A stretch of DNA of 64,000 nucleotides from an uncultured delta proteobacterium (GCA_963804955.1 CAWDSQ010000024.1:64001-128000), one strand, 5' to 3'; numbered from the stretch's first letter, positions 6,059 through 38,717 are shown. Program-made: numbers and translations. Notes: generated by a model not told the origin, from the letters alone.

Positions 6059-7617
6059 TTAAACGCCATCGGCTTCATCCATCATTTTTTTCAGTTCCTG
6101 ACAAAGCCCAACGGTGACCTTTGTCAGGCCCTGATCCTGGGCATATGACTCAGTTCCCTCGATAGCTCCCTGCCGTACGCCGCCGGGTATTTTCATCATT
6201 ATAGCTTTGGCAGCTTCTTCCCAATCCATAGTAAATGTTGCCTTTATTTCCTGCGTGACCTCATTTCTAATTGCGAAAAGCCACACAAGCAGCACGATGC
6301 TTCCAATGCCCTTGAGGGCAAAAGCAGAACCGGGGCCGATCGAGTCAAACAAAACTCCGCCGAGTGAAAGAAAAAAAGAATGCCAATCGGCTGCATGGTG
6401 CACAGGCCGCCCATGACCGCGCCCATTAATGTTATTGGAGAGGCATCCATGGCAAGGGTATTAGCGCCGACAATAGATCCTGCCATGCCCACACCGGCAA
6501 AAACTGCAGCAAGAAAGCATACTGGGTGGAAGGGCCCCGGAGCAATCGCCAGGAGCAGCATGCTGATGCCTGCGCAGAGAACGCTGAATAAAATTGTCGG
6601 CATCCTTCCTTTTTTTTCAAGCATCACGCCGATAACAGGAAATGCCCCTAAAGATACCACACCCATGATTACCATGGGAATAACGGCCATGAGCGTTGCT
6701 TTGCCGGTATCATAGCCTGAAGCAGGTCCTTCTTTTACGGCCCAGGCAACCAGATAGGTTGCCAGAACCACGATGTCTGCGCGGGTAACCAGACAGCACA
6801 AATAGGCGGCTTTCAAAGCTTTGCTCTGCTTGACCAGAGGAAACACATCCTTGAGGCCCTGCTTCTCAGCGGCCTTCTCCGGCATCCTGTCTTTCATGAA
6901 AACTGCTGTCAGCAGGGCTCCTAATGCCGCAAACATCATGCAGGCATCAAAAGCGGCCAGCACGCCAGCTTTTTTTATAATAGCGCCAAATAAGCCAAAA
7001 ACCACAAGCGAGGCAAAGCCAATAGACATTCCATTAAAGGCCATGCCCTTGCCGCGATCCTTATCCCTGGTATAGTCGCCAACCATAGTAATGAATTGCG
7101 GAAAGCCAAGAATGAGCCCTATGCCGACCAAAAAACGCGCCACATAGGAAACGAGCAGTCCCGGTGCAAAAGGGGTAAATGAAGCGGCTTTATCAGGTGC
7201 GAAGCTCAGCCAGGCGCAGATTGTAGCAGCAATCTCGGGCGAAATACCCAGCCCAACAGCAATTTGATTGGAGATTTTAAACAGGTAGAAGGAAATGAAT
7301 AAAACGATAAAGCCTGCAAGAATCAGAATTTTGCGGCCCGTCTTATCAGACAAAGCCCCGATCAACGCGACAAAAAGCAGGGTTGCGACCTGGCTCATGT
7401 TTTGGTAAAAACTGATGATTGTGCCCGCAAAAACCTGATCGATGTTAATAATATCTTTCATGAAAGCCGGCTGAAGAACCGCCGGAACGCTCAGGAACAT
7501 GCCGATCAGGAAGCTGTTGAAAAACATGAAAAAATAGTTGGTCTTGGACAGACCCGGCAATATGGTGATACCGGCGAATTTAGGAGCTTTGATTATGGTT
7601 GCGTTTGAGTCGGCCAT
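6059..7617 (-). CDS. MFS transporter with C-terminal PCP_red-like domain (copy 1; one frameshift near 6370)
   Basis: GALSDKTGRK MFS motif A; ORFs 6244..7617 and 6059..6403 join at a homopolymer run; paralogue of 26598..28157. Confidence 0.85.
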
Positions 7618-7726
7618 TTTTCCTCCTTTATGATTTTTCTTTATTTATGTATTAAAACCTTATTCCTAGTATTTCGATTTTAAAAATTTTATGTTGATGA
7701 ACCTTTATTGTCAACAATTAAATACC

Positions 7727-14372: not shown

Positions 14373-15764
14373 TTACTCGCTGTCGGCAGCACCGGCATCA
14401 TTCTTGCCGCCGCCCGCTTCAATCCCGAGGCCCATGCAGACAAGCTCGGTAATATCGCGCATGGTAACCGGCGCATTCATGGCCTGTATGCCGATCTGAA
14501 GGCCCTGGTAGCAGAACGGGCATGCAGACACAAGCTCGGTTGCTCCGGTTTTTATGGCATCAGCAACGCGCTTCTGTGAAATCTTGTTCTGCATGTCGGG
14601 ATAGCCCGACTTGAGGCCGCCGCCGGCGCCGCAGCACCGCGAATTTTCGCGGTTGCGCTCCATCTCGATGAGCTTTACGCCGGGAATAAGGCTCAGAAGT
14701 TCACGCGGGCGCATCAAACACGCCGCTGTGACGGCCCAAATGACAGGGGTCATGATAGGTAACCGTGAGGTTAACCGGCGTTTTCAGTTCGAGTTTTTTC
14801 TGCTTGATCAGATCGACGATATACTCGCAGGTATGCTTAATCTCAAAATTCAGTCTTGCCGATTTTAGCATAATCCTCTTTGATTGTTTTAAAACAGCCT
14901 GCACAGGAGGTGACCAGTGTTTTAATTCCGAGATCATTGAACTGCTCGATATTTTCCTTGCAGAGCTTTAAAAAACTCTGGCGTTCGCCCATGCGCAGCA
15001 AGAACGCTGCCGCAGCATTTTTCCTTGTTGCCGAGTATGCCGAAATCGATACTCCGGCAGCATCAAGAATATTGGTCGTATTGATGCCGACTTCTTCGAC
15101 ATTATTGTCGTAGGAGGCTGTGCAGCCGACAAAGTACAGAACTTCGGACTTGCTCTTTGAAATATCCTTGGGCTCGTCCTTGATGCGCTTTTTCTTCTTG
15201 GCAAGCTTGCCCCAGCGAGCGCGCGAGCTTCTGGGCTGGCCCCAGGGGTTGTCATAGTTCTTTGTCTTGAGAACAAGGTCCTTTTGGGAATCAAGGGGGC
15301 CGCAGTCAAGGTCAACGATGGTCTCGCGGATGCGCTCCCAGAGCTCGACCGTGTCGATGGCCACCGGGCAGACGAAGTGGCACTGCATGCAGGTGCTGCA
15401 GGCATACAGGTCTTTGGCGAAGTGCCTTCAGCTCCTCCTCGGTTACGGGCTTTTTGCCGCAGAGCTTTCCGAGAAAGCTGTCGGCGCTGAAGGCGCCGTG
15501 CTGCCGGGAGATAATGTCCTTGAACAGGCGGGCGCGGCCGCGCGGGGTCAGGGGCTCGCGGCTGTCCTGATCATAGGCAGGGCACCAGTTGGAGCACTCG
15601 CCGCAGCGCGTGCAGGCATCAAGCTCCATGAGCATGCGCGGGCTGAATTTTTCGATATTTATTTTTTTCATGCCCTGCACCTGCGCCGGTGTTTCAGCCT
15701 GAGGCGGAGTTTCCGCCGGAGCCGCAGCAGCTGTTGCTTCCTGAGTTTTAATTTCGTTTTCCAT
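14373..15764 (-). CDS. HdrD/GlpC-like (Fe-S)-binding protein with two CCG domains (several frameshifts)
   Basis: CTRCGECSNWCP, C..CMQCHFVCP, YFVGCTASY, TSCAGC, TYHDPCHLGR, CCGAGGG, SACPFC distributed over overlapping ORFs; GGAGG RBS. Confidence 0.85.
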
Positions 15765-21441: not shown

Positions 21442-22360
21442 CTTCTGCCCCCACCCATGCCGCGCCGAACACTCCTGCCGAATCCCCGAGCAGATTTTTG
21501 AGAATCGGCGTCTTCAGATTCTCGCAGAAAACATATTTTTTCACACGCTCTGCGCCCAGCGAATACAGCTCGTCGATATTCGAAAGCCCGCCGCCCAGCA
21601 CAACAGCATCAGGATCAAGCGTGGAAATAAGCCCGCCCAGACAGCGGCCGAAATCATCAAAAAAGCGGTTGAAGGCTTCGACGCATTCAGGATCGTTGCT
21701 GCGAAAGCCCTGTAGAATGGATTGCATTGATATAATACGTCCGTAGCGGGCATAAAAAGCCGCCTCAACCCCGCCGCCGCTGATTTTTGTTTCCACGCAA
21801 CCCCTGTTGCCGCAGTAGCACGGCGCCCCGTTTGGATCAACTGAGTAATGGCCCCATTCACCCGCTATATGATGCGGTCCGGGCCGTACATGGCCGTTTA
21901 TACACATCCCGCCGCCGCAGCCAGTTCCCATAATAATGCCGAACACAAGACCATAACCCTGTGCCGCCCCTGCCCTGCATTCGGCAAGGGTGAAACAGTT
22001 GGCATCGTTTTCGACAACCACGCTGCAACCAAGTTCTCGCTCAATGTCCGTATGAAGAGATTTGCCGTTCAGGCAGGTTGTATTTGCATTCTGAACGGTA
22101 TTGGTCTCGGCAGCAATTGAGCCGGGTATGCCGATGCCGATGGTGCGGGTGCTGTGTGGAGGGATATGCTTACGCGCTTCATCGGTAAGGTCAGCAATAC
22201 AGTGTAAAACAGGACCGTAGCCATCACGACTGGGTGTCGGCATGCGCTTTCGGAACAGCACCCCGTCATCGGGATCAAGCGCGATGACCTCGGTTTTCGT
22301 TCCGCCAAGATCAATGCCGATTTTAAACGTGATAGAGCCTGGCTCAGTAATAATTTTCAT
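21425..22360 (-). CDS. ROK-family sugar kinase (Mak/fructokinase-like)
   Basis: GIDLGGTK, ENDANC, GTGCGGG, GEWGH, CYCGNRGCVE. Confidence 0.9.
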   Translation of the reverse strand: MKIITEPGSITFKIGIDLGGTKTEVIALDPDDGVLFRKRMPTPSRDGYGPVLHCIADLTDEARKHIPPHSTRTIGIGIPGSIAAETNTVQNANTTCLNGKSLHTDIERELGCSVVVENDANCFTLAECRAGAAQGYGLVFGIIMGTGCGGGMCINGHVRPGPHHIAGEWGHYSVDPNGAPCYCGNRGCVETKISGGGVEAAFYARYGRIISMQSILQGFRSNDPECVEAFNRFFDDFGRCLGGLISTLDPDAVVLGGGLSNIDELYSLGAERVKKYVFCENLKTPILKNLLGDSAGVFGAAWVGAEAIRSS

Positions 22361-22389
22361 AAAAAATAATGTATCAGTTTGTTTACCGC

Positions 22390-22437
22390 TTGACAAAAAA
22401 AATAATACAGCTAGAATAGATACCAGTTAGTCGGTAT
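22390..22437 (+). promoter_or_regulatory. Sigma70-like promoter with adjacent palindromic operator (candidate TetR site)
   Basis: TTGACA (22390)-16 bp-TAGAAT (22412), followed by ATACC-AGTTAGTC-GGTAT at 22420-22437. Confidence 0.6.
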
Positions 22438-22479
22438 GTTGTTTTACTCAACGCAATCCATAATTTCAGGGAGCTTATT

Positions 22480-23294
22480 ATGAAATCAGTCATAATTACC
22501 GGAAGTTCCAAAGGAATCGGGCTTGGCATGTGTCTGGAATTTCTCAAGCGTGGCTGTTCTGTTCTGATCAGTTCAAGAAAAAAGGCCGATGTTGATGCTG
22601 CAGTACAAAAATTTTCAGCTCAATTTGGAACTGAGAAAGTTATCGGGCTTACCTGTGATGTAACGGATATAAGACAGGTTCAGGCACTCTGGGACGCAGC
22701 GGTTTCAAAATTCGGTAAAGTCGATATCTGGATCAATAATGCCGGAGCGGTTAATACGACCCTGCCGGTTTGGGAAGTGGACCCTGATGAAATTAAAACC
22801 GTTATAAATACGAATATTGTCGGACATCTGTTTGGCGTGAAGGTAGCTATGAAGGGCATGCTGAAGCAGGGAGCTCGGCCAGATTTACAATTTTTACGGT
22901 TTTGGCTCAAATGATGACAAAAAACCCGGCGGACTGGGCGTCTACGGCACCACAAAACGGGCTATCCGCTATCTCACCGAACTTCTGGTCGAGGAGGTTA
23001 AGGATATGCCGGTTCAGGTCGGCTCACTCATGCCCGGCACGGTTATAACCGATCTTATGATTAAAACCATCAGCACCATGCCGCTGCAGCAGCGTGAAAT
23101 GCTCAAAAAAAGCTTTAATATCGTTGGCGGATACTGTTGAAACTGTTTCTGAATTTCTGGTCGAAGAGATACTGAAAAACAATAAAAACGGCGCTGGTAT
23201 CAACTGGATGACCGAGGAAAAATTCAAAGCCCGCATGCAGGATCCCTATTACCAGAAACGAGATCTGTTCTCAGACTTGAAACTCGACGCTTAA
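22480..23294 (+). CDS. SDR oxidoreductase, NOL/NYC1-like (paralogue 1; frameshifted)
   Basis: TGSSKGIG, WINNAG, YGTTK (in the shifted frame), LADTVETV. Confidence 0.8.
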
Positions 23295-23313
23295 TGCCGG
23301 TGAGCAGACTGCC

Positions 23314-23910
23314 ATGACGACGAAAAAAGCCCCTGAGCTGCGAAAAGAGGAAATTTTCAACGCCGCACTTTTCTGTTTCAACCAGAAAGGCTATTACGAA
23401 ACCTCCATTGATGATATTGCAGCCCGTGCGGGTATAACAAAGGGAGGCATTTATCATCACTTCAACTCAAAAAAAATTCTTTTTATCGATCTGTTTCACA
23501 CGGTAGCCAATCGCTATTTTGAGTCGCTCAAGCTCAAAATTCACCAGTCGTCAAACGCCTCGAGCCACATGCAGGACCTGGTCAAAAAATCCAATGAAAT
23601 TTTCAACGAAAATATGGATATTCTCAAGTTCTGCTTTGAATTCATGTCGCTTGCTTCGCGCGACAGCGAAATTCGACTGGCGGTCACTGATTTTTACAAA
23701 AACAGGGTCGTCATATTCGCAGAGACCCTGTCTGACGGGGTCAATAAGGGTATGTTCAAGGATATACCTGCAGATGCCGTTGCGCGGTCGCTCTATTTTC
23801 TGTCCATGGGCTTTTTCCTGACCTACTTTACCGTTGATATCGATTTTGACCCCATGACGCAACACACAATAAACATGAAAACGTTCATGGAGGGGATCAA
23901 AAAGCAGTAA
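23314..23910 (+). CDS. TetR/AcrR-family transcriptional regulator
   Basis: KGYYETSIDDIAARAGITKGGIYHHFNSK HTH. Confidence 0.92.
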   Translation: MTTKKAPELRKEEIFNAALFCFNQKGYYETSIDDIAARAGITKGGIYHHFNSKKILFIDLFHTVANRYFESLKLKIHQSSNASSHMQDLVKKSNEIFNENMDILKFCFEFMSLASRDSEIRLAVTDFYKNRVVIFAETLSDGVNKGMFKDIPADAVARSLYFLSMGFFLTYFTVDIDFDPMTQHTINMKTFMEGIKKQ

Positions 23911-24001
23911 AATCAGGTTCATGCCGGCTGCGGCGCCGCTATAAACGAATAAGCAAAGTAAAAAACAAAATACCTTAATTAAAGCATGGAGGAAACCGCA
24001 C

Positions 24002-24796
24002 ATGAAACACATGACACAGACACTTGCAGTACTGACACTGGCCATAGCCACACTATTTTTCTTTTCTGCTGCAACCGCTGCAGAGCCGCAGGCAGCAAAG
24101 GATACAAAGGCCAAAGCCATCGACACCAAGGAACAGAAGACCAGCAATCACCCTGAAATACCAGAAGGTGTTTCCTGCAATGACTGCCATGAAGTCAAAT
24201 ACGATGCCAATACGACCGCAACCCAGGTCTGGCTGACCGGAGAGTCCCCTAACAAAAAAGCCGGCGAAGGCGTTATGCCGAAAGAAAAAATCTGGCAGGA
24301 ATTCACCAAAATAATCGGCAGCAAAACCGGGACCAAAACCTTTATCCTGGCCACCTGCCTGAACAATGAGCCGCTTTCCACAACCGCGGAATTTTCCCTT
24401 GATCCGGCTAAAAAGGTTCTCTACGGCCTGCATGAAATGGGCACTGAAAAACTCAATCATGTACAAAACAACCCGAAGGTGAGCCTCAACTGGCACAAGG
24501 ACTTCGACAGCTTTGCCGATTTCCGGTGCTGCCAGATAAAGGGACATGCTGAAATCATCGAAAACACCAAGCCGGAATTCGAAGCAGCCGTCAAAAATTT
24601 CCTGCCCTATGAAAAAAGCGTGCGCCTGCCGGAAAACGCCACCCGGCAGCAGAAGGAAGATGCCTATAAGGCGCGGCGTGACATGCTCAAGAAGGGCAAT
24701 TTTGTCGTTATGAAAATCTCCATTGACCGGATTACCATGGCAAATTCCGCTTTCGTGAAAGACGGTTTCCGCGTGTATCAGCGCTGGGTACCCTGA
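24002..24796 (+). CDS. Exported protein: CxxCH heme motif + pyridoxamine-5'-phosphate-oxidase-like split barrel
   Basis: Signal peptide; CNDCH; ILATCLNNEP and KLNHVQNNPKVSL split-barrel motifs; GGAGG RBS. Confidence 0.75.
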   Translation: MKHMTQTLAVLTLAIATLFFFSAATAAEPQAAKDTKAKAIDTKEQKTSNHPEIPEGVSCNDCHEVKYDANTTATQVWLTGESPNKKAGEGVMPKEKIWQEFTKIIGSKTGTKTFILATCLNNEPLSTTAEFSLDPAKKVLYGLHEMGTEKLNHVQNNPKVSLNWHKDFDSFADFRCCQIKGHAEIIENTKPEFEAAVKNFLPYEKSVRLPENATRQQKEDAYKARRDMLKKGNFVVMKISIDRITMANSAFVKDGFRVYQRWVP

Positions 24797-24845
24797 CCCG
24801 CTGCAGGCAGGTCAACGAATCAGCAAAACACTTTCAGGAGCATGT

Positions 24846-25649
24846 ATGAAAACAATCGTCATTACAGGAAGCACCCGCGGCATCGGACATGGTATGGCGC
24901 TTGAGTTGCTGAAGCGCGGCAGCAGGGTCATGATCAGCGGCCGCAAAAAAGACCAGGTCGATAGCGAAGTAGACAATTTTGCAGCAGTGTACGGCAAAGA
25001 GAACATCGCCGGACATCCCTGTGAAATAACCAGGTATGAACAGATACAGGCCCTGTGGGATGCCGCCGTAAAAGCTTTCGGCACGGTTGATATCTGGATC
25101 AACAATGCCGGTGTGACGCACCCCACGCGCAATCTCATGGAGCTCGAGCCCGCTGAAATGAAACCAGTAATAGACACCAATATCACCGGGTTAATCTATG
25201 CAAATCAGATTGCCCTGCGAGGCATGACAGCGCAGGGTCATGGCTTCATCTACAATATGGAGGGCCATGGCAGCCATGATGAATACATCGCAGGGCTGTC
25301 GATTTATGGCGCAACAAAACGTGCTGTCACCTATTTCACCAATTCGCTGCTCATGGAAATTGATGGCGAAACGATCAAGGCAGGGCTGCTGTCGCCGGGA
25401 ATCGTTATGACCGATTTTATAATTGATGAAATGCGCAAACTGCCGCCCGATCGTTTTGAGACGGCTAAAATCGTCTACAACTGCCTTGCCGATACCGTTG
25501 AAACCGTGACGCCCTGGCTGGCTGAAAACATCCTGGCCAATGATGAAAGCGGTAAGGAAATTGCCTGGCTTGACACGGAAAAAGCAAATGAGCGATTTAA
25601 CTCTGACGAGTACTGCAGCAGGGATTTGCTGAGTCAATTCGGTTTATAA
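24846..25649 (+). CDS. SDR oxidoreductase, NOL/NYC1-like (paralogue 2)
   Basis: TGSTRGIG, WINNAG, IYNMEGHGS, YGATK, LSPGIVMTD. Confidence 0.9.
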   Translation: MKTIVITGSTRGIGHGMALELLKRGSRVMISGRKKDQVDSEVDNFAAVYGKENIAGHPCEITRYEQIQALWDAAVKAFGTVDIWINNAGVTHPTRNLMELEPAEMKPVIDTNITGLIYANQIALRGMTAQGHGFIYNMEGHGSHDEYIAGLSIYGATKRAVTYFTNSLLMEIDGETIKAGLLSPGIVMTDFIIDEMRKLPPDRFETAKIVYNCLADTVETVTPWLAENILANDESGKEIAWLDTEKANERFNSDEYCSRDLLSQFGL

Positions 25650-25679
25650 TTAATTAAATTTATTCATGCGGGGGTCTTT

Positions 25680-26490
25680 ATGAAATCAGTCGTCATAACA
25701 GGAAGCTCAAAAGGCATCGGCCTGGGTCTGGCTAAAGAATTTTTGAAAAAAGGCTGCTCGGTCATGTTTAGCAAGTTTTGCCAGGGCAGAAATGGAGCAG
25801 GAGTGCGAACAAGCAGCTGCTGAATTCGGCAAAGACAAGGTTGCCTGCTTTCACTGCGATGTCACCAGTCTGGAGCAGGTTCAGGGGCTCTGGGATGGTG
25901 CGGTACAAGCCTTCGGCAAGGTTGATATCTGGATGAATAATGCCGGCATCGCCAATACGACCCGCCTGTTCTGGGAGCTTGAGGCAAAAGAAATACCGCG
26001 GGTCGTCAGCACCAACATGGCCGGCGTCATGTACGGCAGCCATGTGGCCATGAAGGGCATGCTGGCGCAGGGGTACGGCGCAATTTATAATTCCGAGGGC
26101 TTTGGCAGCGACGACATGTTTGTCAACGGCCTTGCCGTGTACGGCGCCACCAAACGCGGCGGCCGCTATTTTACCGAAGCGCTGGCCGAGGAAGTAAGCA
26201 AAAATGAAAAACCCGTCATTGTGGGCACGATAAGCCCCGGCATAGTCCTGACCGATTTTCTGCTCGATGATATGCGAAAAATGTCCCCGGATATCCTTGA
26301 AACAACCAAGGCGGTCTATAACAGCCTGGCCGACACGGTTGAAGTTGTCACGCCGTGGCTTGTTGAAGAGGTGCTCGGCAATACTGAGAACGGAAAACGC
26401 ATCATCTGGCTGACCGAGGAAAAAGCAAATGCGCGGTTTGAATCTGAGGAATACTACACCCGTGATCTTTTCACACAGCATGGCCTGTAA
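25680..26490 (+). CDS. SDR oxidoreductase, NOL/NYC1-like (paralogue 3; frameshift near 25775)
   Basis: ATG 25680 gives MKSVVITGSSKGIG; continues in ORF 25792..26490 with WMNNAG and YGATK. Confidence 0.85.
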
Positions 26491-26597
26491 GGTAATTAAA
26501 TTATTGACAATAAAAGGTCAACAACATAAACTTCGTGGAATTAAAATTTCGGACAAGCTCTTTTAAGAAAAGAAAAACAATTAACAAGGGAGGGAAA

Positions 26598-28157
26598 ATG
26601 GCTGACGCAACCGAAACGACAATCAAAGCTCCTAAATTTGCCGGCATAACCATATTGTCGGGTCTGTCCAAAACCAACTATTTCTTCATGTTTTTCAACA
26701 CCTTCCTTATGGGTATGTTCCTGAGCGTTACGGCGGTTCTGCAGCCGGCTTTCATGAAAGATATTATTAAAATTGATCAGGAATTTGCCGGCACGATCAT
26801 CAGTTTTCTTCAAAACATGAGCCAGATTGCAACCCTGCTTTTTGTCGCATTGATCGGTGCTTTGTCCGATAAAACCGGCCGCAAAATAATGGTTCTTGCA
26901 AGCTTTATCGTACTGTTCATTTCCTACTACCTGTTTAAAATCTCCAATCAAATTGCAATTGGTCTGGGTATTTCACCCGAAATTGCAGCTACAATCTGCG
27001 CCTGGCTGAGCTTTGCTCCCGATAAAGCCGCTGCATTTACCTCTTTTGCCCCCGGCTTGCTCGTATCCTATGTGGCGCGTTTTCTGGTCGGCGTTGGTCT
27101 TATACTCGGCTTTCCGCAATTAATAACAATGGTCGGTGACTATACCCGGGACAAGGACCGCGGCAAAGGCATGGCCATGAACGGCATGGCCTCGGGATTT
27201 GCCGCGCTTGTAGTTTTTGGCTTGTTCGGCGCTATTATGAAAAAAGGCGGCGTGCTGGCCGGTTTTGATGCCTGCATGTTGCTTGCGGTAATAGGCGCCG
27301 TGCTGACCGCAGTTTTCATGAAAGACCGGATGCCGGAGCAGGCTGCTGAGAAGCAGGGACTCAAGGATGTTATTCCCCTTGTCAAGGAGAGCATGGCTTT
27401 AAAAGCAGCGTATTTGACTACCCTGGTTACCCGCGCCGATATCGTTGTTCTTGCGACCTATCTGGTTGCCTGGGGAGTCATGGCAGGACCTGCTGCAGGG
27501 TATGATTCCGGCAAAGCTACGCTCATGGCCACCATTCCCATGATGATCATGGGCGTCATATCTTTAGTCGCATTTCCTGTTGTCGGCGTAATGCTCGAGA
27601 AAAAAGGAAGGATGGCGACAATTATTTTCAGTGTTATCTGCGCCGGCGTCAGCATGCTGCTCGTGGCTGTTTCTCCGAGCCCTTTCCACCCCATATGTTT
27701 TCTTGCTGCAATTTTTGCCGGCATCGGCATGGCAGGATCGATTGTCGGGGCCAATACCCTTGCCATGGATGCCTCCCCAATAACACTTATGGGCGCGGTT
27801 ATGGGCGGCCTCTCCACCATGCAGCCCATTGGCATTTTGTTTTTTCTCGCACTGGGCGGAGTTTTGTATGACGGGATCGGCCCGGGTGCAGCTTTTGCCC
27901 TCAAGGGCATCGCCAGCATCGTTCTGGTTGTATGGCTTTTCACCATCAGGAATGTCGTAACGGAAGAAATAAAGGCGACATTCAATATGGATTGGGAAGA
28001 AGCAGCAAAAGCAATTATGATGAAGATCCCCGGCGGCGTGCGCCAGGGCGCCATCGAGGGCACCGAGTCATATGCTCAGGATCAGGGCCTGACAAAGGTC
28101 ACCGTTGCGCTTTGCCAGGAACTCAAAAAAATGATGGATGAGGCTGACGGCGTGTAA
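26598..28157 (+). CDS. MFS transporter with C-terminal PCP_red-like domain (copy 2, intact)
   Basis: 519 aa from ATG 26598 (GGGAGG RBS); GALSDKTGRK; tail WEEAAKAIMMKIPGGVRQGAIEGTESYAQDQGLTKVT. Confidence 0.9.
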   Translation: MADATETTIKAPKFAGITILSGLSKTNYFFMFFNTFLMGMFLSVTAVLQPAFMKDIIKIDQEFAGTIISFLQNMSQIATLLFVALIGALSDKTGRKIMVLASFIVLFISYYLFKISNQIAIGLGISPEIAATICAWLSFAPDKAAAFTSFAPGLLVSYVARFLVGVGLILGFPQLITMVGDYTRDKDRGKGMAMNGMASGFAALVVFGLFGAIMKKGGVLAGFDACMLLAVIGAVLTAVFMKDRMPEQAAEKQGLKDVIPLVKESMALKAAYLTTLVTRADIVVLATYLVAWGVMAGPAAGYDSGKATLMATIPMMIMGVISLVAFPVVGVMLEKKGRMATIIFSVICAGVSMLLVAVSPSPFHPICFLAAIFAGIGMAGSIVGANTLAMDASPITLMGAVMGGLSTMQPIGILFFLALGGVLYDGIGPGAAFALKGIASIVLVVWLFTIRNVVTEEIKATFNMDWEEAAKAIMMKIPGGVRQGAIEGTESYAQDQGLTKVTVALCQELKKMMDEADGV

Positions 28158-28175
28158 TTTATTTTAGCATGTATT

Positions 28176-28213
28176 AAAGAAAGGCTGCCACCAGTGGCAG
28201 CCTTTCTTTTTTT
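28176..28213 (+). terminator. Intrinsic terminator
   Basis: AAAGAAAGGCTGCCA-ccag-TGGCAGCCTTTCTTT plus T-run. Confidence 0.85.
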
Positions 28214-28264
28214 ATGACTCTCCACAGGCAACTATGCTATGCTGTAATCAAAAAAGGAACTCGC

Positions 28265-28714
28265 ATGACAGTTTCTGCTGAAGAACTAAATCGACAGGAA
28301 AAGCTGCGCGCCATTCTTGCTGCAAGCAAAGCCACGCTTCTTGCAGAGCTTCGCAAGTCAATGGAAGTTCAGAGAACGGAAAACAGCAGCATGTCATTTG
28401 AAATTGCGCAGGATGACGGTGACAAATCCGTTGAAGACCATGAACGGCATGTACAGGTTTCCATTCAGAGCATTAAATCAGAGCAGCTTGATCTCATTGA
28501 GCAGGCACTTGAAAAACTTGCTGCCGGGACCTATGGCATATGTGCGGAGTGCGGATGTGAAATACCACTCCAGCGTCTTGCAATACAGGCATGCACCTCG
28601 TACTGCGTTGCCTGTCAGGAAAAAATAGACCTGATGAACAAACGGGACAAGCTCGGCTCACAGAAAAACGAAACGACCCTCGAAACGACCTATGACTATC
28701 TCCCGGATGAATGA
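28265..28714 (+). CDS. TraR/DksA-family zinc-finger protein
   Basis: DDGD coiled-coil tip; YGICAECGCEIPLQRL..YCVACQ. Confidence 0.85.
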   Translation: MTVSAEELNRQEKLRAILAASKATLLAELRKSMEVQRTENSSMSFEIAQDDGDKSVEDHERHVQVSIQSIKSEQLDLIEQALEKLAAGTYGICAECGCEIPLQRLAIQACTSYCVACQEKIDLMNKRDKLGSQKNETTLETTYDYLPDE

Positions 28715-28811
28715 CTCTGATTGCAGAAGCAGGATAAAGCATTTGACTCACCTGTAGCCTCCTGTTATAGATACGCAGCAGACAACAACCACCACGGACA
28801 CTACGGAATCT

Positions 28812-29804: not shown

Positions 29805-30776
29805 ATGGATAGCACCCGCTTACTTGACGTCATTGACCTGAAAAAAAGCTTTCCTGTTTCACAAGGTTTTTTTTCACGCACGAACGATTGTATCCAGGCT
29901 GTCAACGGTATCAGCTTCAGCATACTGCAGGGTGAAATTCTTGGGCTTGTCGGCGAATCAGGCTGCGGCAAATCAACCGTGGCACGGCTTGCCCTTAACC
30001 TCGACCGGCCTGACAGCGGCAGGATCCTGTTCAAAGGTAAAAATATTTTCGAACTCAGGCAGGAGGCCCTCAAACAATTCAGGCGCCGCGTTCAGATAAT
30101 CTTTCAGGATCCTTTTTCATCCCTCAATCCGAGAAAAACAGTCGGAAGCATTATAGGTGAACCGCTCCTGATACACAACATCGCTTCACGTCGGGACGCA
30201 CCTGAAAAAGTTATCAGGCTTATGGAGCTTGTCGGACTGCGCCGGGATTACTACGACCGGTATCCCCATGAGTTCAGCAGCGGCCAGCGCCAGCGTATCG
30301 GCATCGCGCGGGCCCTCAGCCTGACTCCCGAACTGGTTGTGGCAGATGAGCCGGTATCAGCCCTGGACGTTTCTATTCAGGCGCAAACCATAAACCTGCT
30401 GCTGGATCTTCAGAAACAGTTCGGCCTTACCTATCTCTTTATTTCACATGATCTGTCTGTTGTGAGGCATGTCAGCACGCGGGTCGCTGTCATGTATCTG
30501 GGAAAAATCGTCGAGCTCGGGCCGAATGCACGGCTGTATGAACATCCTATTCACCCATATACTGAAGCGCTGCTGTCGGCAGTTCCCGTGCCAGATCCCC
30601 GCATAAAAAAACCGCGTGTCATATTGAGCGGAGATCCTCCAATCCCGATTGGTCGCCGCACGGGCTGTGCGTTTGCCGACCGCTGCCCGATTGCAGATGC
30701 ATCCATGTGTTTTGATATCGAGCCGCCCTTTGTTGAAAAGGCGGCAGGTCACTGGGCTTCATGCCATAAACGTTGA
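29805..30776 (+). CDS. Oligopeptide/dipeptide ABC ATPase (OppF/DppF-like)
   Basis: GESGCGKS, YPHEFSSGQRQR, DEPVSALDVS, HPYT. Confidence 0.9.
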   Translation: MDSTRLLDVIDLKKSFPVSQGFFSRTNDCIQAVNGISFSILQGEILGLVGESGCGKSTVARLALNLDRPDSGRILFKGKNIFELRQEALKQFRRRVQIIFQDPFSSLNPRKTVGSIIGEPLLIHNIASRRDAPEKVIRLMELVGLRRDYYDRYPHEFSSGQRQRIGIARALSLTPELVVADEPVSALDVSIQAQTINLLLDLQKQFGLTYLFISHDLSVVRHVSTRVAVMYLGKIVELGPNARLYEHPIHPYTEALLSAVPVPDPRIKKPRVILSGDPPIPIGRRTGCAFADRCPIADASMCFDIEPPFVEKAAGHWASCHKR

Positions 30777-30795
30777 CACGGGAGATGCTTCAGCA

Positions 30796-32714
30796 ATGTC
30801 TGCACTACGCCCTACCCTGCACGAGCAGCGAACAAAGCTGAAGAATGCACACGAACAGCTTGAAGTCACACTGTCTGCGCAAAAGGGGTATGAAGAAATA
30901 TTTCTTACAACGAGCGCAAACAACTCCGACATACTTCAGCTTCTCAGCAAAAATTTCCGAGTGGATTATGTGAGCCCTTCAGCCTGGCCTATCACGGGAT
31001 ATACCCCGGAAGAAATCGTTGGGCGCAGCTGCCTTGACTTTATTCATCCGGATGACCTGTCATGTGCACTGGATGCTTTTTTTGAAATTATCGAGACCGG
31101 CCAGTGCGATCGAAGTATTGAATTTCGCATCAGGCACAAAAGCGGTTTTTATGTTCCTGTTGAAGCGACCGGCAAACATATGGAAAAAATGTATGCATGG
31201 CGGGGGCTTCATCCTTCATTACCGGAATATGACGAAACAGAAAGAGTCTGAACACGAGATATTTGAACAAAAGAAATTTTATGAAACCATACTGAACACG
31301 ATCTATGATGGAGTCTTCGTCACGGATCGCCACGACACAATCACCTTCATCAACAATGCTTTTTCACTCACCACAGGCCTGTCTGTCCGACAGGGTTATC
31401 GGCAAAAATATTCTGATTGATATATTGACGGACGGCCCGCAGCATTTTCAGTGCTATTATGCTCAGGCCCGCAGCCGCCTGACACCGGTAAATTTCGACA
31501 GCATTCCCGCCTCCACCTTTTCCGGAATAACAATATTCCTTTCCGGCTGGTGTATACCGAAGCATGCTGAAGGCGTTTTTGATGGAATGATCTGCACATT
31601 TACCGATATAACCGGACAGCAGCAGATTAAAGAAAAACTTTCTGAAAGCGAAACCCGCTTCCGCTCCATTGCGGAAACCGCCACCGACGGCATCATCACG
31701 GTGAACGGCTCCGGTGAGGTTGTGTTCTGGAATACGGCTGCATCGGTAATCTTAGGCTATACAGAGGCCGAGGTCATGGGTAAAGAAATCTATCAGATCA
31801 TGCCCGATGAGGTAGTGTCTGATCATGGGCGGATATTTACCGAACCCGAAGAATCCATCAGCCATCGTTCAGTCGGGACGACAGTTGAAGGCAGGGCCCG
31901 GCGAAAAGACGGCACAATTTTCCCCATTGAATTATCTATTGCAAGCTGGATGATTGGCGCGGAAGTCTACTTCACTGCAATCATCAGGGATAGTACGCAT
32001 AGAAAGCATATTGAACAGTCTCTTCAGCATTCAGAGCAGGAACTCAAAAACCTTTCATCCCGGCTTTTACACGCACATGAACAGGAGCGCAAACGCATAG
32101 CATATGAATTGCATGACGGACTCGGGCAAATTCTGAGCGCTGCAAAAATTGGTGTCAAAACAATTCTTGATGCCGGTGTTCAAAGGCTTGCCGCCGGCAC
32201 ACACAGTTCCGCGAATAGCCTTCCGGACATCATTCAGTCTGCCATTGATGAGGTTCGGAGAATTTCACGAGATTTGCGTCCATCGATTCTTGATGATCTT
32301 GGTATAATCGCCGCGATCAATTCATTTTGTTTTGATTTTGAAAAGGTCAACGGGACTATCACCGTGGTCAGGGAAATAAGCGCCCGCGACGAGGATATTC
32401 CCGAAAAAATAAAAATTGTGATATACCGTGTGACACAGGAGGCCTGCACCAACATTGTGCGCCACAGTCATGCCGACAAAGTTACGGTGGCTCTTTCATC
32501 TGTATCCGGAAATGTACGGCTCAGCATACACGATAACGGCAACGGCTTTGTTCAGCAAAAGCTGCATGAAGGCAGAGAATCAAACCGCGGCTTGGGATTA
32601 TCAAGCATGAAAGAGAGGGTTGAGCTTTCCGGCGGAGACTTCACCCTGACATCTTCACCTGATCAGGGAACAATTGTGCAGGCACTCTGGCAACCGGTGC
32701 TAACAGAAGCATAG
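30796..32714 (+). CDS. Multi-PAS sensor histidine kinase, HisKA_3 (NarX/UhpB type); frameshifted
   Basis: Three PAS-like segments over ORFs 30649/31019/31305; ERKRIAYELHDGLGQ H-box; DNGNGF and GLGL boxes. Confidence 0.85.
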
Positions 32715-35177: not shown

Positions 35178-35479
35178 TTTTATGACAAAGATATACCTAA
35201 TTTATTGTGAACTAATGGATTTAGTATTAAGGTGCCGGCTTTCAAAAACAATACGGTATAGTTGATTAACACTGACAGCCTCCATCATCAAATAAGTATC
35301 CTTAACAACCCCTAATAAAGGATATCTGTAAGCAGCATTTTTCGCCACATGCAAACAAAAAAAACACATCAACCGCAAAAAAGAAGTATTGATTTACCCC
35401 TGTTTACTAGTGTGAAAATAAAGACATATTACGTATCGGCAAAAACCAACAGTTATTTAAATTACACGTGGAGAAGCAT

Positions 35480-36965
35480 ATGAGCACAGCAGCAACATCG
35501 TTAAAGAGCATCATCGATGCCGTGGCAGGCGTTGTTGGGGCGCAGAATGTCAGCACCGACATCGACACCTTGAAGCAGTACTCAAAAGATACGAGCCTTA
35601 TGCCTGCACGCATGCCTGACATGGTCGTCAGAGTTCTGAACCGTGAGCAGCTCATGGGCGTCTTGAAGATCGCCAATGAAAACAGCATCCCCGTTGTGCC
35701 GCGCAGCTCCGGAACCGGCACCTACGGCACCGCTATTCCTCTTGAAGGCGGCATCATTGTTGATCTGTCGAGCATGAAGCGCATCCCGCGCATCGATACC
35801 CGCAATCGCTGGGCACTGATCGAGGCTGGTGTCACGTTCGGTGAACTGCGCGATGAGCTTGCAAAACAGGGCATGCAGCCCCTGAATACGCTGCTGCCGC
35901 GCAAGGACAAGTCTGTCATATCCAGCGTGCTTGAACGTGAGCCGGTGCTGGCTTGCAAGACTGAATGTGATGAGCCCCTGAGAACCATGGAATTCGTATG
36001 GGGTACCGGCGAGCTGATGAGAACCGGCGCAATGTCTGTTGACTCAATGCCGCCGGAGGAAATTCCCAACAAAACCTCCTCCGATCTCTGCTCGATCGGC
36101 GGCCCCGGCATTGACTGGTGGCGGCTCATGACAGGAACGCAGGGAACCTTCGGCGTCATAACGGTCATGAATGTAAAAATCTTTCCACAAGGCGCTCCAG
36201 CAGAAGGTTGTTATTCTAACCTTCAATAACCTTGAAGATCTGGTAAAGCCTCTGTATGCTATTCAGCACCGTGAAATCGGTCACGAGTGTTATGTTCTGA
36301 ACAATTACGACGTGGCGGCAATCCTTGCCGACGATGACAAGGAAATTGCAAATCTTGCCAGAAAAATCCCCCCTTACTGCATCGTGCTGAATCTCTGGGG
36401 CGGTCAGTTTTTTCCCGAGGAAAGAATCGCCTATGAAGAAAAAGCTGTCAATGAAATAGCCGACCAGTTTCAATTTTCAGTTGCCAATGGGCTTTCCGCC
36501 ATACCCGATGCAAACAAGCGCCTTGAAAGCATGCTGGCCAGCCCCTGGGAAGGCGATATATACTGGAAAGACCGCTATGCAGGCGCATGCCTTGAGCTTG
36601 TATTCGAGTCCGGCCTCGACAAGATCCCCGAATACTGGAAAATATTCACCCAGCTTGCCGGCGAATACGGCATCGACACCAAGACCCTTGGCCTCTATAT
36701 TCAGCCCCGCCAGCGCGCACGCGTCTGCCATGTTGAATTCCACATCCCCTGTGATCCAAATGGCGCAGACCTTGCAAATATCAAAGCATTCCAGCGCAAA
36801 GCAGCCGAAGCAGTCATGAATGCAGGCGCATTCTTCTATCGCCCCTACTATGACTGGTCGGATATGATCTTCGCCCGCTCCGGCTATACATTTGAAGCGA
36901 TCAAAAAAATTAAAAAGATTCTTGACCCGAACCATACGCTCAACCCGGGCAAAATGGGTCTGTAA
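35480..36965 (+). CDS. FAD-binding oxidoreductase (GlcD/VAO-like), type A1; frameshifted near 36200
   Basis: PDMVVR, VVPRSSG, IEAGVTF, GTQGTFG, C-terminal LDPNHTLNPGKMGL. Confidence 0.85.
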
Positions 36966-37017: not shown

Positions 37018-38717
37018 ATGGCTTTCAATGAAATAGCTCTCAAAGCATTACAGGACGTGGTTGGCGAAGAAAACGCCTCGACAGACAGGGTACTGTGTCA
37101 GGCATATTCCCGCGTGCAATGGACTGCTGACGGCTGTATTCAGCGCAATGAAATGAAGACGTCAATGCGGCCTGACTGTATCGTGCTGCCTTCCTCCACA
37201 GAGGAAGTGCAGTCTATCTACAAACTTGCCAACCGCTATGACTTCATCGTCATACCCCGCGGCTCCGGCATGATCAATGCGGCTTTTGCAAACCCGACGC
37301 AGCGCATGATCGGAAAACCGATCTGCATTATTGACCCCAAGCGCATGGATAAAATTATTAAGGTCGATGCCAACAATATGTATGCGGTCATCGAGCCCTA
37401 TGTCTGCTTTGCTGCTCTGCAGGCAGAAGCGATGAAGGTCGGCTGCATGGCACCCTCACCCCCGGCAGGCTCGCAGATATCGGCCCTTGCAAATATTCAG
37501 TGGCATGGCGCATACGGCAACTCCTGGCTTTCAGGCCTTGGCGCCAACCAGCTTCTGTCCTTTGAGCTCGTTCTTCCCAATGGCGAGTTGCTCAAGAGCG
37601 GCTCCATCGCCCAGCAGGGCCCTGAAGAAGACTGGATATGGAATGACGGCCCTGGCCCCGACCTTCGCGGCTTTTACCGCGGCGCACAGTTCGGCCACGC
37701 CGGCGGCATGGGCATGGTGACAAAAATTTCCACCCGCCTGTTCCCCTGGCCCGGACCCTACCGTTTTCCCGACAAACGGCAATGCCGTTGAAAAAGAATC
37801 CCATTTCACCAAGGATAAGGTTCGCTGGTACATGATCGATGTGCCCGAAAAAATCAAGGAGTACCCCAAATTCGAGGCAGAACAGCTCCGCTGGTCCTGC
37901 GACCTTCATTACGAAATCGCCCGGGCCGAGCTTGCTATTGTTGTGCAGCATAATGCCAAGCAGTTCATGATGACCTGGGCGGCGCGCAGCAAGGAAGAAT
38001 TCCATAAGGGCGCCAATGAAGAATTCTTTCCCCGCGGCTACAATGTCGTCGCTCTTTCTTCGCTGACCTCTCTTGAGCAGCTCGAATATGAAGAAAAGGT
38101 TCTCAAGTCGATCGTAGCCAAGATGGGCGGTTCCTTCCTGTCAGAAGAGTCCAAGGATCCCATGGATCGCGAGCGCATACAGGTCCTGGATGCGCATTAC
38201 CAATGACTGGATCCGCACCGGCCATTCAATGAGGCTTTCCCGGCCCAGCGACTGCTTCCATCAGGGCACGGCATGCCTCGACTCCATCGACGCTGTGACT
38301 GATGAGATCCTGCGGGCAAACACACAGCAGCGCAAAGAGCTTGCGGAACAGGGCAAAGGCAAAGACCTGCTTCCGATCAGCTTCTACGGCGGCTGGATCA
38401 GCCCGATTGAAAAAGGCTATGGCGCTCTGATGACAACCGACCTCTGGCCCGAGCAGGAGCCAGAGAAAGCCGCTCAGGCAATTCAGCTGCTGTTCGGCTC
38501 GCTGATGGGCATGCTTGCAACCAAAAGCGCAGGCGCTACGGTATGCCTGCTGGGACCGGCATATGACCTTCTTGGACCGCAGTTCTATAATGTTCATCTT
38601 ATGGTCAAGGCGATGAAGCGTGAGTTCGATCCGAACAATATTTCCAATCCGCCGTATGCTACCACGCCTGATGTGGTTAATCCGAAGCAGCTTGCTGAGC
38701 TTACAAAAGTTCTGTAA
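37018..38717 (+). CDS. FAD-binding oxidoreductase (GlcD/VAO-like), type B1; two frameshifts
   Basis: PDCIVLPSSTEEVQ, IEPYV, ELVLPNGE, GPGPDLRG, GGMGMVTK, FDPNNISNP. Confidence 0.85.

Follow-up and report, generated by a model that had tools for sequence, protein, structure and literature searches.

The 64,000-nucleotide stretch from an uncultured delta proteobacterium analysed here (GCA_963804955.1 CAWDSQ010000024.1:64001-128000; hereafter the window) holds, between positions 22,390 and 28,213, an operon of six genes on the + strand. It runs from a promoter to a terminator and encodes three short-chain dehydrogenases/reductases (SDR1, SDR2 and SDR3), a TetR-family regulator, an exported protein with a predicted haem c site and a split barrel, and a transporter of the major facilitator superfamily (MFS) with a C-terminal PCP_red domain. 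The operon is genuine, and our preferred reading of it, held with somewhat less than even confidence, is that its products may, on induction, take up pigments derived from chlorophyll or porphyrins and reduce their carbonyl groups with NAD(P)H in the absence of oxygen, the operon being one part of a larger anaerobic toolkit for pigment processing. The host belongs to an uncultured lineage of Thermodesulfobacteriota that is apparently anaerobic and non-phototrophic.

The evidence that carries this reading begins with the reductases. All three SDRs and their intact orthologues show the features of classical SDRs (PF00106), namely TGxxxGxG, NNAG, the catalytic Ser and Tyr-x3-Lys. A search among proteins of near length gave 5654 matches, and none of the 120 listed was informatively named. 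Among proteins longer than 468 amino acids, SDR2 found seven matches: four MFS-SDR fusions, two liverwort proteins named chlorophyll(ide) b reductase in UniRef, and one unnamed look-alike. The liverwort reductases, which are the best non-fusion matches in this set, align with 90% of SDR2 at 30-32% identity (E 5e-29 and 5e-27). When they were searched in turn against this genome, SDR2 came out on top with 134 bits, followed by a paralogue on contig C7 (129), SDR3 (101) and SDR1 (88 + 40), with the next other SDR at 79. The alignment extends through a C-terminal extension, FN-x-[IL]-x-[DE]-x-x-ETV, which ordinary SDRs lack.

In a maximum-likelihood tree of 31 sequences, the NYC1-type reductases, the MFS-SDR fusions and the module SDRs fall together, with support of 98/96, against other SDRs of this genome; the tree has long branches and samples three NYC1-type sequences, no NOL proper, and seven outgroup SDRs, all of this genome. 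SDR2 groups with SDRs that adjoin HCAR-like genes (support 100/98; see below), SDR3 groups with an SDR whose neighbour is bilin-reductase-like, and SDR1 stands on a branch by itself. Judged by reciprocal best hits and this limited tree, SDR1-3 are NOL/NYC1-like, so the placement in a NOL-like clade, on which the initial annotation of this stretch had staked its proposal, is borne out, with the long branches and the small outgroup to be kept in mind. Like plant NYC1/NOL, the module SDRs combine the core TGxxxGxG, NNAG and YG(A/T)TK with the C-terminal extension. Unlike them, they have neither the NYC1 insert nor its membrane part, their identity to these reductases is just 30-32%, and they are three paralogues in a repressor-controlled operon of a non-phototroph, with chlorophyll-type compounds as candidate substrates only.

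A second line of evidence comes from relatives in the second family of the order, in which the genes are arranged differently: TetR, a HemG-like flavodoxin, the exported protein, an SDR, and then a protein of 409 amino acids. This last protein and the 7-hydroxymethyl chlorophyll a reductase of Arabidopsis (HCAR; PDB 5dqr) align over their whole lengths at E 4.9e-73, while the runner-up in the PDB, a protein with an F420 hydrogenase/dehydrogenase beta-subunit domain, stands at E 2.4e-15. An HCAR-like gene is present in 14 of the 42 genomes of the class; in five (G035, G409, G289, G410 and G418) it directly adjoins a NOL-like SDR of the SDR2 orthogroup, and the pair recurs in three metagenome loci (L125, L150 and L162). 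In plants, according to the part of PMC9306834 that treats this route, NYC1/NOL and then HCAR convert chlorophyll b into chlorophyll a in two steps, with which chlorophyll b breakdown opens. The direct juxtaposition of an SDR2-type gene and a full-length HCAR homologue in these five genomes and three loci resembles that route, whereas the setting, anoxic and heterotrophic, does not, and the HCAR-like gene of this genome lies on another contig (C30) and is frame-broken. The reaction of the HCAR-like protein is not fixed by the similarity, because HCAR homologues include 8-vinyl reductases, as the same part of PMC9306834 states. The copy of this genome (C30:149023-150228; L200 7930-9213) consists of four pieces and shares 61-68% identity with the L040 protein; it adjoins an alpha/beta hydrolase gene, and a gene for a CrtC-like lipocalin of the carotenoid hydratase family lies 7 kb away.

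Across the class, SDRs of this kind were found in 27 of the 42 genomes and Fe_bilin_red (PF05996) proteins in 32. In family f3, none of eight genomes gave a match to the SDR, to Fe_bilin_red or to an HCAR-like gene, and the exported protein was not found in the single f3 genome searched. This pattern is no more than suggestive, the compared genomes being kin. Fe_bilin_red is expanded to 6-22 matches per genome in the 32 genomes that have it; this genome (G000) has ten, eight of them over the cut-off, with examples at C22:17173-17844, C7:129019-129642 and C32:76205-76849 and none in the window. The abundance is notable because known bilin reductase relatives are all argued, in the part of PMC10151467 concerned, to act downstream of oxygen-dependent steps, and this lineage looks anaerobic. 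The pre-PcyA clusters of heterotrophic bacteria described there hold haem oxygenase, V4R, Fe-S and globin genes. They are alike in that Fe_bilin_red genes stand in conserved clusters of non-photosynthetic bacteria, and unlike in that, as far as that description goes, they have no TetR, SDR, exported haem protein, aldehyde:ferredoxin oxidoreductase (AFOR) or UbiD.

A further island of this genome (C7:384000-423000; L201, L052) contains genes for GGR-like flavoproteins, small PNPOx proteins, two Fe_bilin_red proteins, MMPL/DUF1302/DUF1329 envelope transport proteins and a YCF48-like BNR protein, in addition to ETF and FAD-oxidase genes, one AFOR gene, a fourth NOL-like SDR (51% identical to SDR2), and a third gene of the module's MFS type, with a broken frame and 45-49% identity.

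NOL and NYC1 are enzymes of chlorophyll b-containing phototrophs, and this genome does not look like one: neither Mg-protoporphyrin methyltransferase (PF07109) nor a type II reaction centre (PF00124) was found in the 87% complete genome, type I reaction centres not having been searched for.

The gene order given in the initial annotation (promoter, operator, SDR, TetR, CxxCH/split-barrel protein, SDR, SDR, MFS and terminator, all on the + strand) agrees with our gene calls and with Pfam for each gene, and the promoter with its palindromic operator and the terminator were likewise recovered (Table 1).

Table 1. Features of the operon, in positions of the window
Feature	Position	Strand	Evidence or remark
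Promoter, sigma-70-type, TTGACA-16-TAGAAT	22390..22417	+	11/12 consensus positions; top site in 22200-28800
Candidate TetR operator ATACCAGTTAGTCGGTAT, arms ATACC/GGTAT	22420..22437	+	Palindrome immediately after the -10 box
SDR1, NOL/NYC1-like short-chain dehydrogenase	22480..23294	+	adh_short; three frames in this assembly
TetR-family regulator, 198 amino acids	23314..23910	+	Pfam TetR_N 3.4e-16
Exported protein, 264 amino acids: signal peptide, haem c motif, PNPOx-like split barrel	24002..24796	+	
SDR2, NOL/NYC1-like, intact, 267 amino acids	24846..25649	+	Pfam adh_short 1.1e-36
SDR3, NOL/NYC1-like SDR	25680..26490	+	adh_short; two frames in this assembly
Second promoter-like site, TTGACA-17-TAAACT, upstream of the transporter gene	26504..26532	+	10/12 positions; consensus match only
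MFS transporter with C-terminal PCP_red	26598..28157	+	MFS_1 2.9e-32; open frame from GTG 26535, likely start ATG 26598
PCP_red domain (PF08369), transporter tail	27993..28127	+	33.5 bits vs cut-off 32.5
Intrinsic terminator	28176..28209	+	15-pair stem, 7 G-C pairs, then T run

With respect to regulation, the palindrome ATACC-N8-GGTAT has a single occurrence in the window, and 100 shuffles yielded no match. Its arms are invariant in all six aligned upstream regions (the window and five related loci), while the flanks diverge. In the alignment of the regions upstream of SDR1, the sequence beyond the operator diverges at once and the spacer of L090 differs; both promoter hexamers are preserved (alignment A3). 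The motif is present in 12 of 119 loci, which collapse to nine distinct places: the window, L086 to L090, the G172 locus (L039/L093), L041 and L091. In the G172 locus it lies just upstream of the TetR gene, and in L041 it lies 76 bases upstream of a multihaem cytochrome gene that heads an operon. This related family (L041:5624-6952; L091:5998-6015) has the operator before the multihaem cytochrome c gene, which is followed by the TetR, HemG-like, exported protein, SDR and HCAR-like genes.

The regulator belongs to the TetR family by its N-terminal helix-turn-helix domain and the palindrome at its own promoter, a motif shared by three further related loci. The comparative evidence that the palindrome is a repressor site is good, and TetR is the protein predicted to bind it. 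The closest NCBIfam model of the regulator is the Bacillus-type FadR, with 66.6 bits, far under the cut-off of 200. Steroids or bile acids, which the initial annotation had offered as a substrate option, are without support; their sole trace is a match of the regulator to KstR of just 18 bits against a cut-off of 280, and this reading was dropped.

The exported protein carries a signal peptide and the sequence CNDCH, and matches PNPOx_N (PF01243) with 31.6 bits against a cut-off of 28.1. All 32 aligned homologues keep the motif HP-x4-G-x2-C-x-D-C-H unchanged (H50, P51, G56, C59, D61, C62 and H63). With an export signal and CxxCH it has what is expected of a c-type cytochrome, and haem attachment is predicted. 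Its structure model (mean pLDDT 83.5) gave in Foldseek a generic split-barrel fold, which flavin-, haem- and F420-binding barrels match equally well. HugZ, ChuZ, At3g03890 and the F420-dependent biliverdin reductase Rv2074 share this fold (Foldseek E 1e-6 to 7e-6), but so, equally well, do FMN-binding PNPOx proteins. None of the four is exported or has a CxxCH haem c site, and sequence similarity to solved structures is nil, with nothing under E 0.45 among PDB sequences. An ESM Atlas search found nothing beyond the protein's own cluster, which has 128 members, and the family comprises 184 representative clusters at E <= 0.001 among 1.84 billion proteins, 25 of them at E <= 1e-30.

Residues 68-74 of the exported protein (window 24203-24223) read D-A-x-T-T-A-T, in which D68, T71, A73 and T74 are invariant and A69 and T72 nearly so. 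The segment resembles the [S/T]GA[S/T] flavinylation site, with Thr where Gly is expected. ApbE flavinylates motifs of this kind in extracytosolic proteins, according to the relevant part of PMC8238504, and the sole ApbE gene of this genome is distant (C20:125690-126474). The initial annotation had called the protein a heme-flavin protein: the haem half is backed by the motif invariant in all 32 homologues, whereas the flavin half is a candidate only.

The transporter clearly belongs to MFS_1 (112 bits vs cut-off 33.4). Its PCP_red tail aligns with the C-terminus of ChlB (PDB 2xdq_B; phmmer E 2.1e-4), and the full BchB model is not matched by it (22.5 bits vs 490). Sixty-three database proteins have the MFS-PCP_red architecture, nearly all with at least 48% identity over the region searched. 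Database gene calls of 519 amino acids carry both MFS_1 and PCP_red, and by these calls ATG 26598 is a likelier translation start than GTG 26535. Among named NCBIfam models, the MFS part scores best with those of the magnetosome proteins MamH and MamZ; membership in either family was rejected on score (178 bits vs cut-off 300, and 149 vs 650), MamH and MamZ lack a tail of the PCP_red type, and the window showed no magnetosome genes. According to the part of PMC4071322 that describes it, the C-terminal helix of BchB covers the protochlorophyllide cavity, and a pigment-handling role for the PCP_red tail is therefore plausible.

Four database proteins of 704-709 amino acids (P0121-P0124) consist of an N-terminal MFS transporter fused to a C-terminal SDR of the module type. 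The MFS half of P0121 has the module transporter as its best match in this genome, at 116 bits and 24% identity, a narrow lead over the next MFS at 107 bits. Related arrangements occur as neighbouring genes: L120 and L121 hold three or four such SDRs together with two or three MFS genes, and in L170 an MFS gene lies directly upstream of an SDR gene. In the standard MFS topology the C-terminus is cytoplasmic. As an SDR requires NAD(P)H, the C-terminus of the fusion transporters should face the cytoplasm, and therefore the PCP_red tail should lie inside the cell. The fusions and neighbourhoods support a hand-over from transporter to reductase, with uptake as the proposed direction of transport. 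A second MFS-PCP_red gene is found in the window itself at 6062-7641 on the - strand, next to DUF3786, amidohydrolase_2 and NMO-type genes; it contains a frame shift, and its protein is 85-90% identical to the module transporter.

In this assembly SDR1 is spread over three reading frames and SDR3 over two, whereas the initial annotation had taken both as whole genes. The breaks are caused by single extra bases at 22876 and 23128 in SDR1 and at 25770/71 in SDR3. Nucleotide comparison with the orthologous contig L086, at 84-87% identity, gave exactly three coding indels, each one extra base in the window, while the remaining indels are all intergenic, 26535-26590 being among the stretches that bear them. 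Contigs of relatives from independent public runs have one letter fewer at 22876 (X1), at 23128 (X1 and X2) and at 25770/71 (X1 and X3), and SDR1 is intact in L086, L088, L089 and L090, as is SDR3 in L086 and L090. The breaks were judged against these contigs and the orthologous loci, the best public run matching 0.20 of the sampled words. Since close relatives lack all three extra bases, the frame breaks are very probably assembly errors. The alternative of a decaying operon, in which SDR1 and SDR3 would be true pseudogenes in this strain, could draw on the occurrence of three breaks within two of six genes, but we regard it as extremely improbable: the extra bases are absent from the relatives' contigs, the SDR1 and SDR3 pieces are collinear and closely alignable with the intact L086 orthologues along their whole length, many other genes of the window and the genome are split likewise, and in L087, a related long-contig metagenome-assembled genome (MAG), other genes of the same operon are in pieces.

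A placement of two of the breaks in homopolymers (A7 near 23105-23111 and T4 at 25776-25779) was rejected, since the relatives and L086 put them at 23128 and 25770/71. The frame breaks also affect the motifs YG(A/T)TKR and LADTVE, which the initial annotation had described as shared by all three SDRs: YGATKR and LADTVE are indeed present in SDR2 and SDR3, and SDR1 has YGTTKR, but the LADTVE of SDR1 is an artefact of the shifted frame, its intact orthologues having VGDTVE. Elsewhere in the window, at 14373-15388, 30649-32714, 35468-36965 and 37018-38717, adjacent open frames share one family (CCG; PAS and histidine kinase; FAD_binding_4, then unassigned pieces) and resemble further genes split by single-base indels.

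As for distribution, the exported protein was found in 13 of the 401 genomes of the phylum sampled, all 13 within the class of the window and with 3-6 matches per genome. A scan of genome collections for it gave 34 loci, all from uncultured MAGs and most labelled Thermodesulfobacteriota or delta proteobacterium. A NOL-like SDR lies within 7 kb in 27 of these loci and is adjacent in 17, and TetR is just upstream in 22. Other neighbours are AFOR (11 loci, within 8 kb and in many cases flanked by the genes of the exported protein and the SDR), FMN reductase (9), GGR-like flavoprotein (8), small PNPOx protein (8), Fe_bilin_red (5), MFS-PCP_red (4), HemG-like flavodoxin (4), UbiD (4) and HCAR-like (2). 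These counts define a core of TetR, exported protein and SDR. The complete order SDR1-TetR-exported protein-SDR2-SDR3-MFS-DksA is found in L086, L087 and L090, and in L088 and L089 as far as the contigs reach. The co-occurrence in other genomes that the initial annotation had called for thus holds for TetR, the exported protein and the SDR, but not for the MFS-PCP_red gene, which by its presence in only 4 of 34 loci is assigned to the closest relatives only. The DksA/TraR-type zinc-finger gene at 28214-28714 comes after the terminator, and occupies the same place in L086, L087, L090 and L093.

Under the pigment reading, ligand-free TetR would occupy ATACC-N8-GGTAT, immediately beyond the -10 box, and silence its own operon, as the anatomy of the promoter and the conservation of the site suggest. 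After induction, the exported protein would reach the periplasm through Sec, carrying a split barrel and a single c-type haem, and its role there may be substrate binding or reduction. The MFS transporter would be made as well; its tail, predicted to be cytoplasmic, is similar to the C-terminus with which subunit B of protochlorophyllide reductase caps the substrate. The likeliest substrates would be chlorophyll- or porphyrin-derived pigments with formyl or keto groups, such as b-type chlorins, and the products may pass onward to reductases whose genes lie elsewhere in the genome, HCAR-like and bilin-reductase-like ones among them. It is possible, if distinctly more doubtful, that the operon belongs to a lineage-wide, oxygen-independent salvage or catabolism of chlorophyll and other tetrapyrroles, in which the NOL-like SDRs and the HCAR-like enzyme would perform an anaerobic b-to-a reduction, bilin-reductase-like, GGR-like, AFOR and UbiD proteins would dismantle the pigment, and the exported protein would be a new periplasmic pigment-binding reductase, possibly with a covalent flavin at TTAT.

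Several observations weigh against the pigment reading. The operon of the window has no HCAR-like, bilin-reductase-like or HemG-like gene, and this genome has them on other contigs. The SDR tree relies on seven outgroup sequences and long branches, PCP_red clears its Pfam cut-off by just 1 bit, and the barrel of the exported protein matches flavin, haem and F420 binders equally. In other lineages, SDRs of this subfamily with 42-50% identity stand in unrelated contexts (Rieske/VanA, GntR-FadR, tRNA synthetases), so NOL-likeness alone cannot name the substrate, and no common theme was found in the metagenome contexts of distant SDR relatives. With 34 AFOR, 20 GGR-like, 18 small PNPOx and 13 FMN-reductase tblastn pieces in this genome, these families are so numerous that some adjacency is to be expected by chance, and the counts are not independent because the compared genomes are kin. 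Staygreen Mg-dechelatase (PF12638) was found in none of the 42 class genomes, a result of little weight since control genomes gave no match either. The arrangement of TetR beside MFS is also a classic layout for efflux. The suggestion of tetrapyrrole substrates in the initial annotation thus gains indirect support from the HCAR-like, bilin-reductase-like and HemG-like neighbours in relatives and loses some from the distant SDR members in unrelated contexts, so that the substrate remains a candidate.

An alternative that we consider unlikely, though it deserves attention, is that the operon serves the metabolism of isoprenoids or long-chain alcohols and aldehydes, such as phytol/phytenal, carotenoid fragments or fatty aldehydes. 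The SDRs would then interconvert alcohol and aldehyde, AFOR would convert aldehyde to acid, the GGR-like proteins would saturate double bonds, the MFS transporter would import the lipid, and TetR would sense the lipid or its CoA ester. AFOR within 8 kb in 11 of 34 loci and GGR-like in 8, the roughly 20 GGR-like matches and 34 AFOR pieces of the genome, and the CrtC-like lipocalin gene 7 kb from its HCAR-like gene would all fit, as would the fatty-acid regulator FadR as best named match of TetR, far under cut-off as it is. The reaction of NOL is itself the reduction of an aldehyde (formyl) group. However, the operon of the window contains no AFOR or GGR-like gene, and this alternative does not account for neighbours of the HCAR-like, bilin-reductase-like and HemG-like kinds, for the PCP_red tail or for the need for an exported haem protein.

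It is less likely still, in our view, that the operon is a TetR-controlled system of efflux and detoxification, with the MFS protein exporting a toxic hydrophobic compound, the SDRs detoxifying reactive carbonyls or quinones and the haem protein providing periplasmic redox defence. A TetR gene with an MFS pump is the textbook efflux arrangement, and, as in operons of the TetR/TetA and QacR/QacA type, the TetR gene is predicted to control itself, a palindromic operator overlaps the promoter, and the unit includes an MFS gene. The transporter also has weak NCBIfam matches to drug and tetracycline exporters, a homologue named as a DHA1 multidrug-type transporter by one database source, and a promoter-like site of its own. 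Those operons do not have three reductases and an exported haem protein, however, and here the MFS gene is the least conserved member (4 of 34 loci), TetR, exported protein and SDR remaining together with catabolic-type reductases. Three paralogous SDRs and 3-6 paralogous loci per genome suit substrate diversification better than a single pump, and the MFS-SDR fusions suggest that transport feeds the enzyme. Very unlikely, finally, is the maturation or modification of a tetrapyrrole cofactor or pigment of the cell itself, for instance a modified haem for periplasmic cytochromes, in place of the catabolism of external pigments. The HCAR/DVR-like, HemG-like, bilin-reductase-like and PCP_red families are biosynthetic in phototrophs, and the operator of L041 heads an operon that starts with a multihaem cytochrome gene. 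Against this, a repressor that responds to a ligand, a transporter, multiple paralogous loci in each genome and Fe_bilin_red matches numbering 6-22 per genome resemble a catabolic toolkit, and no marker of chlorophyll synthesis was found in this 87% complete genome.

No description of such bacterial clusters was found in the literature searched. The parts of the operon are members of known families; what is new is their combination, the exported haem c/split-barrel family, and the pairing of NOL-like and HCAR-like genes outside phototrophs. The plant route of chlorophyll breakdown requires an oxygenase, and we know of no pathway that explains the oxygen-free breakdown of chlorophyll and other tetrapyrroles. 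The operon may belong to an undescribed oxygen-free handling of chlorophyll-type pigments in a sediment bacterium, and it offers a compact entry point, with a defined operator, three small soluble reductases, an HCAR homologue as neighbour in relatives and a narrowly distributed haem protein family. If the substrate is indeed of the chlorophyll type, enzymes thought to be specific to phototrophs would also serve anaerobic heterotrophs, which would have a bearing on the preservation of pigments in sediments.

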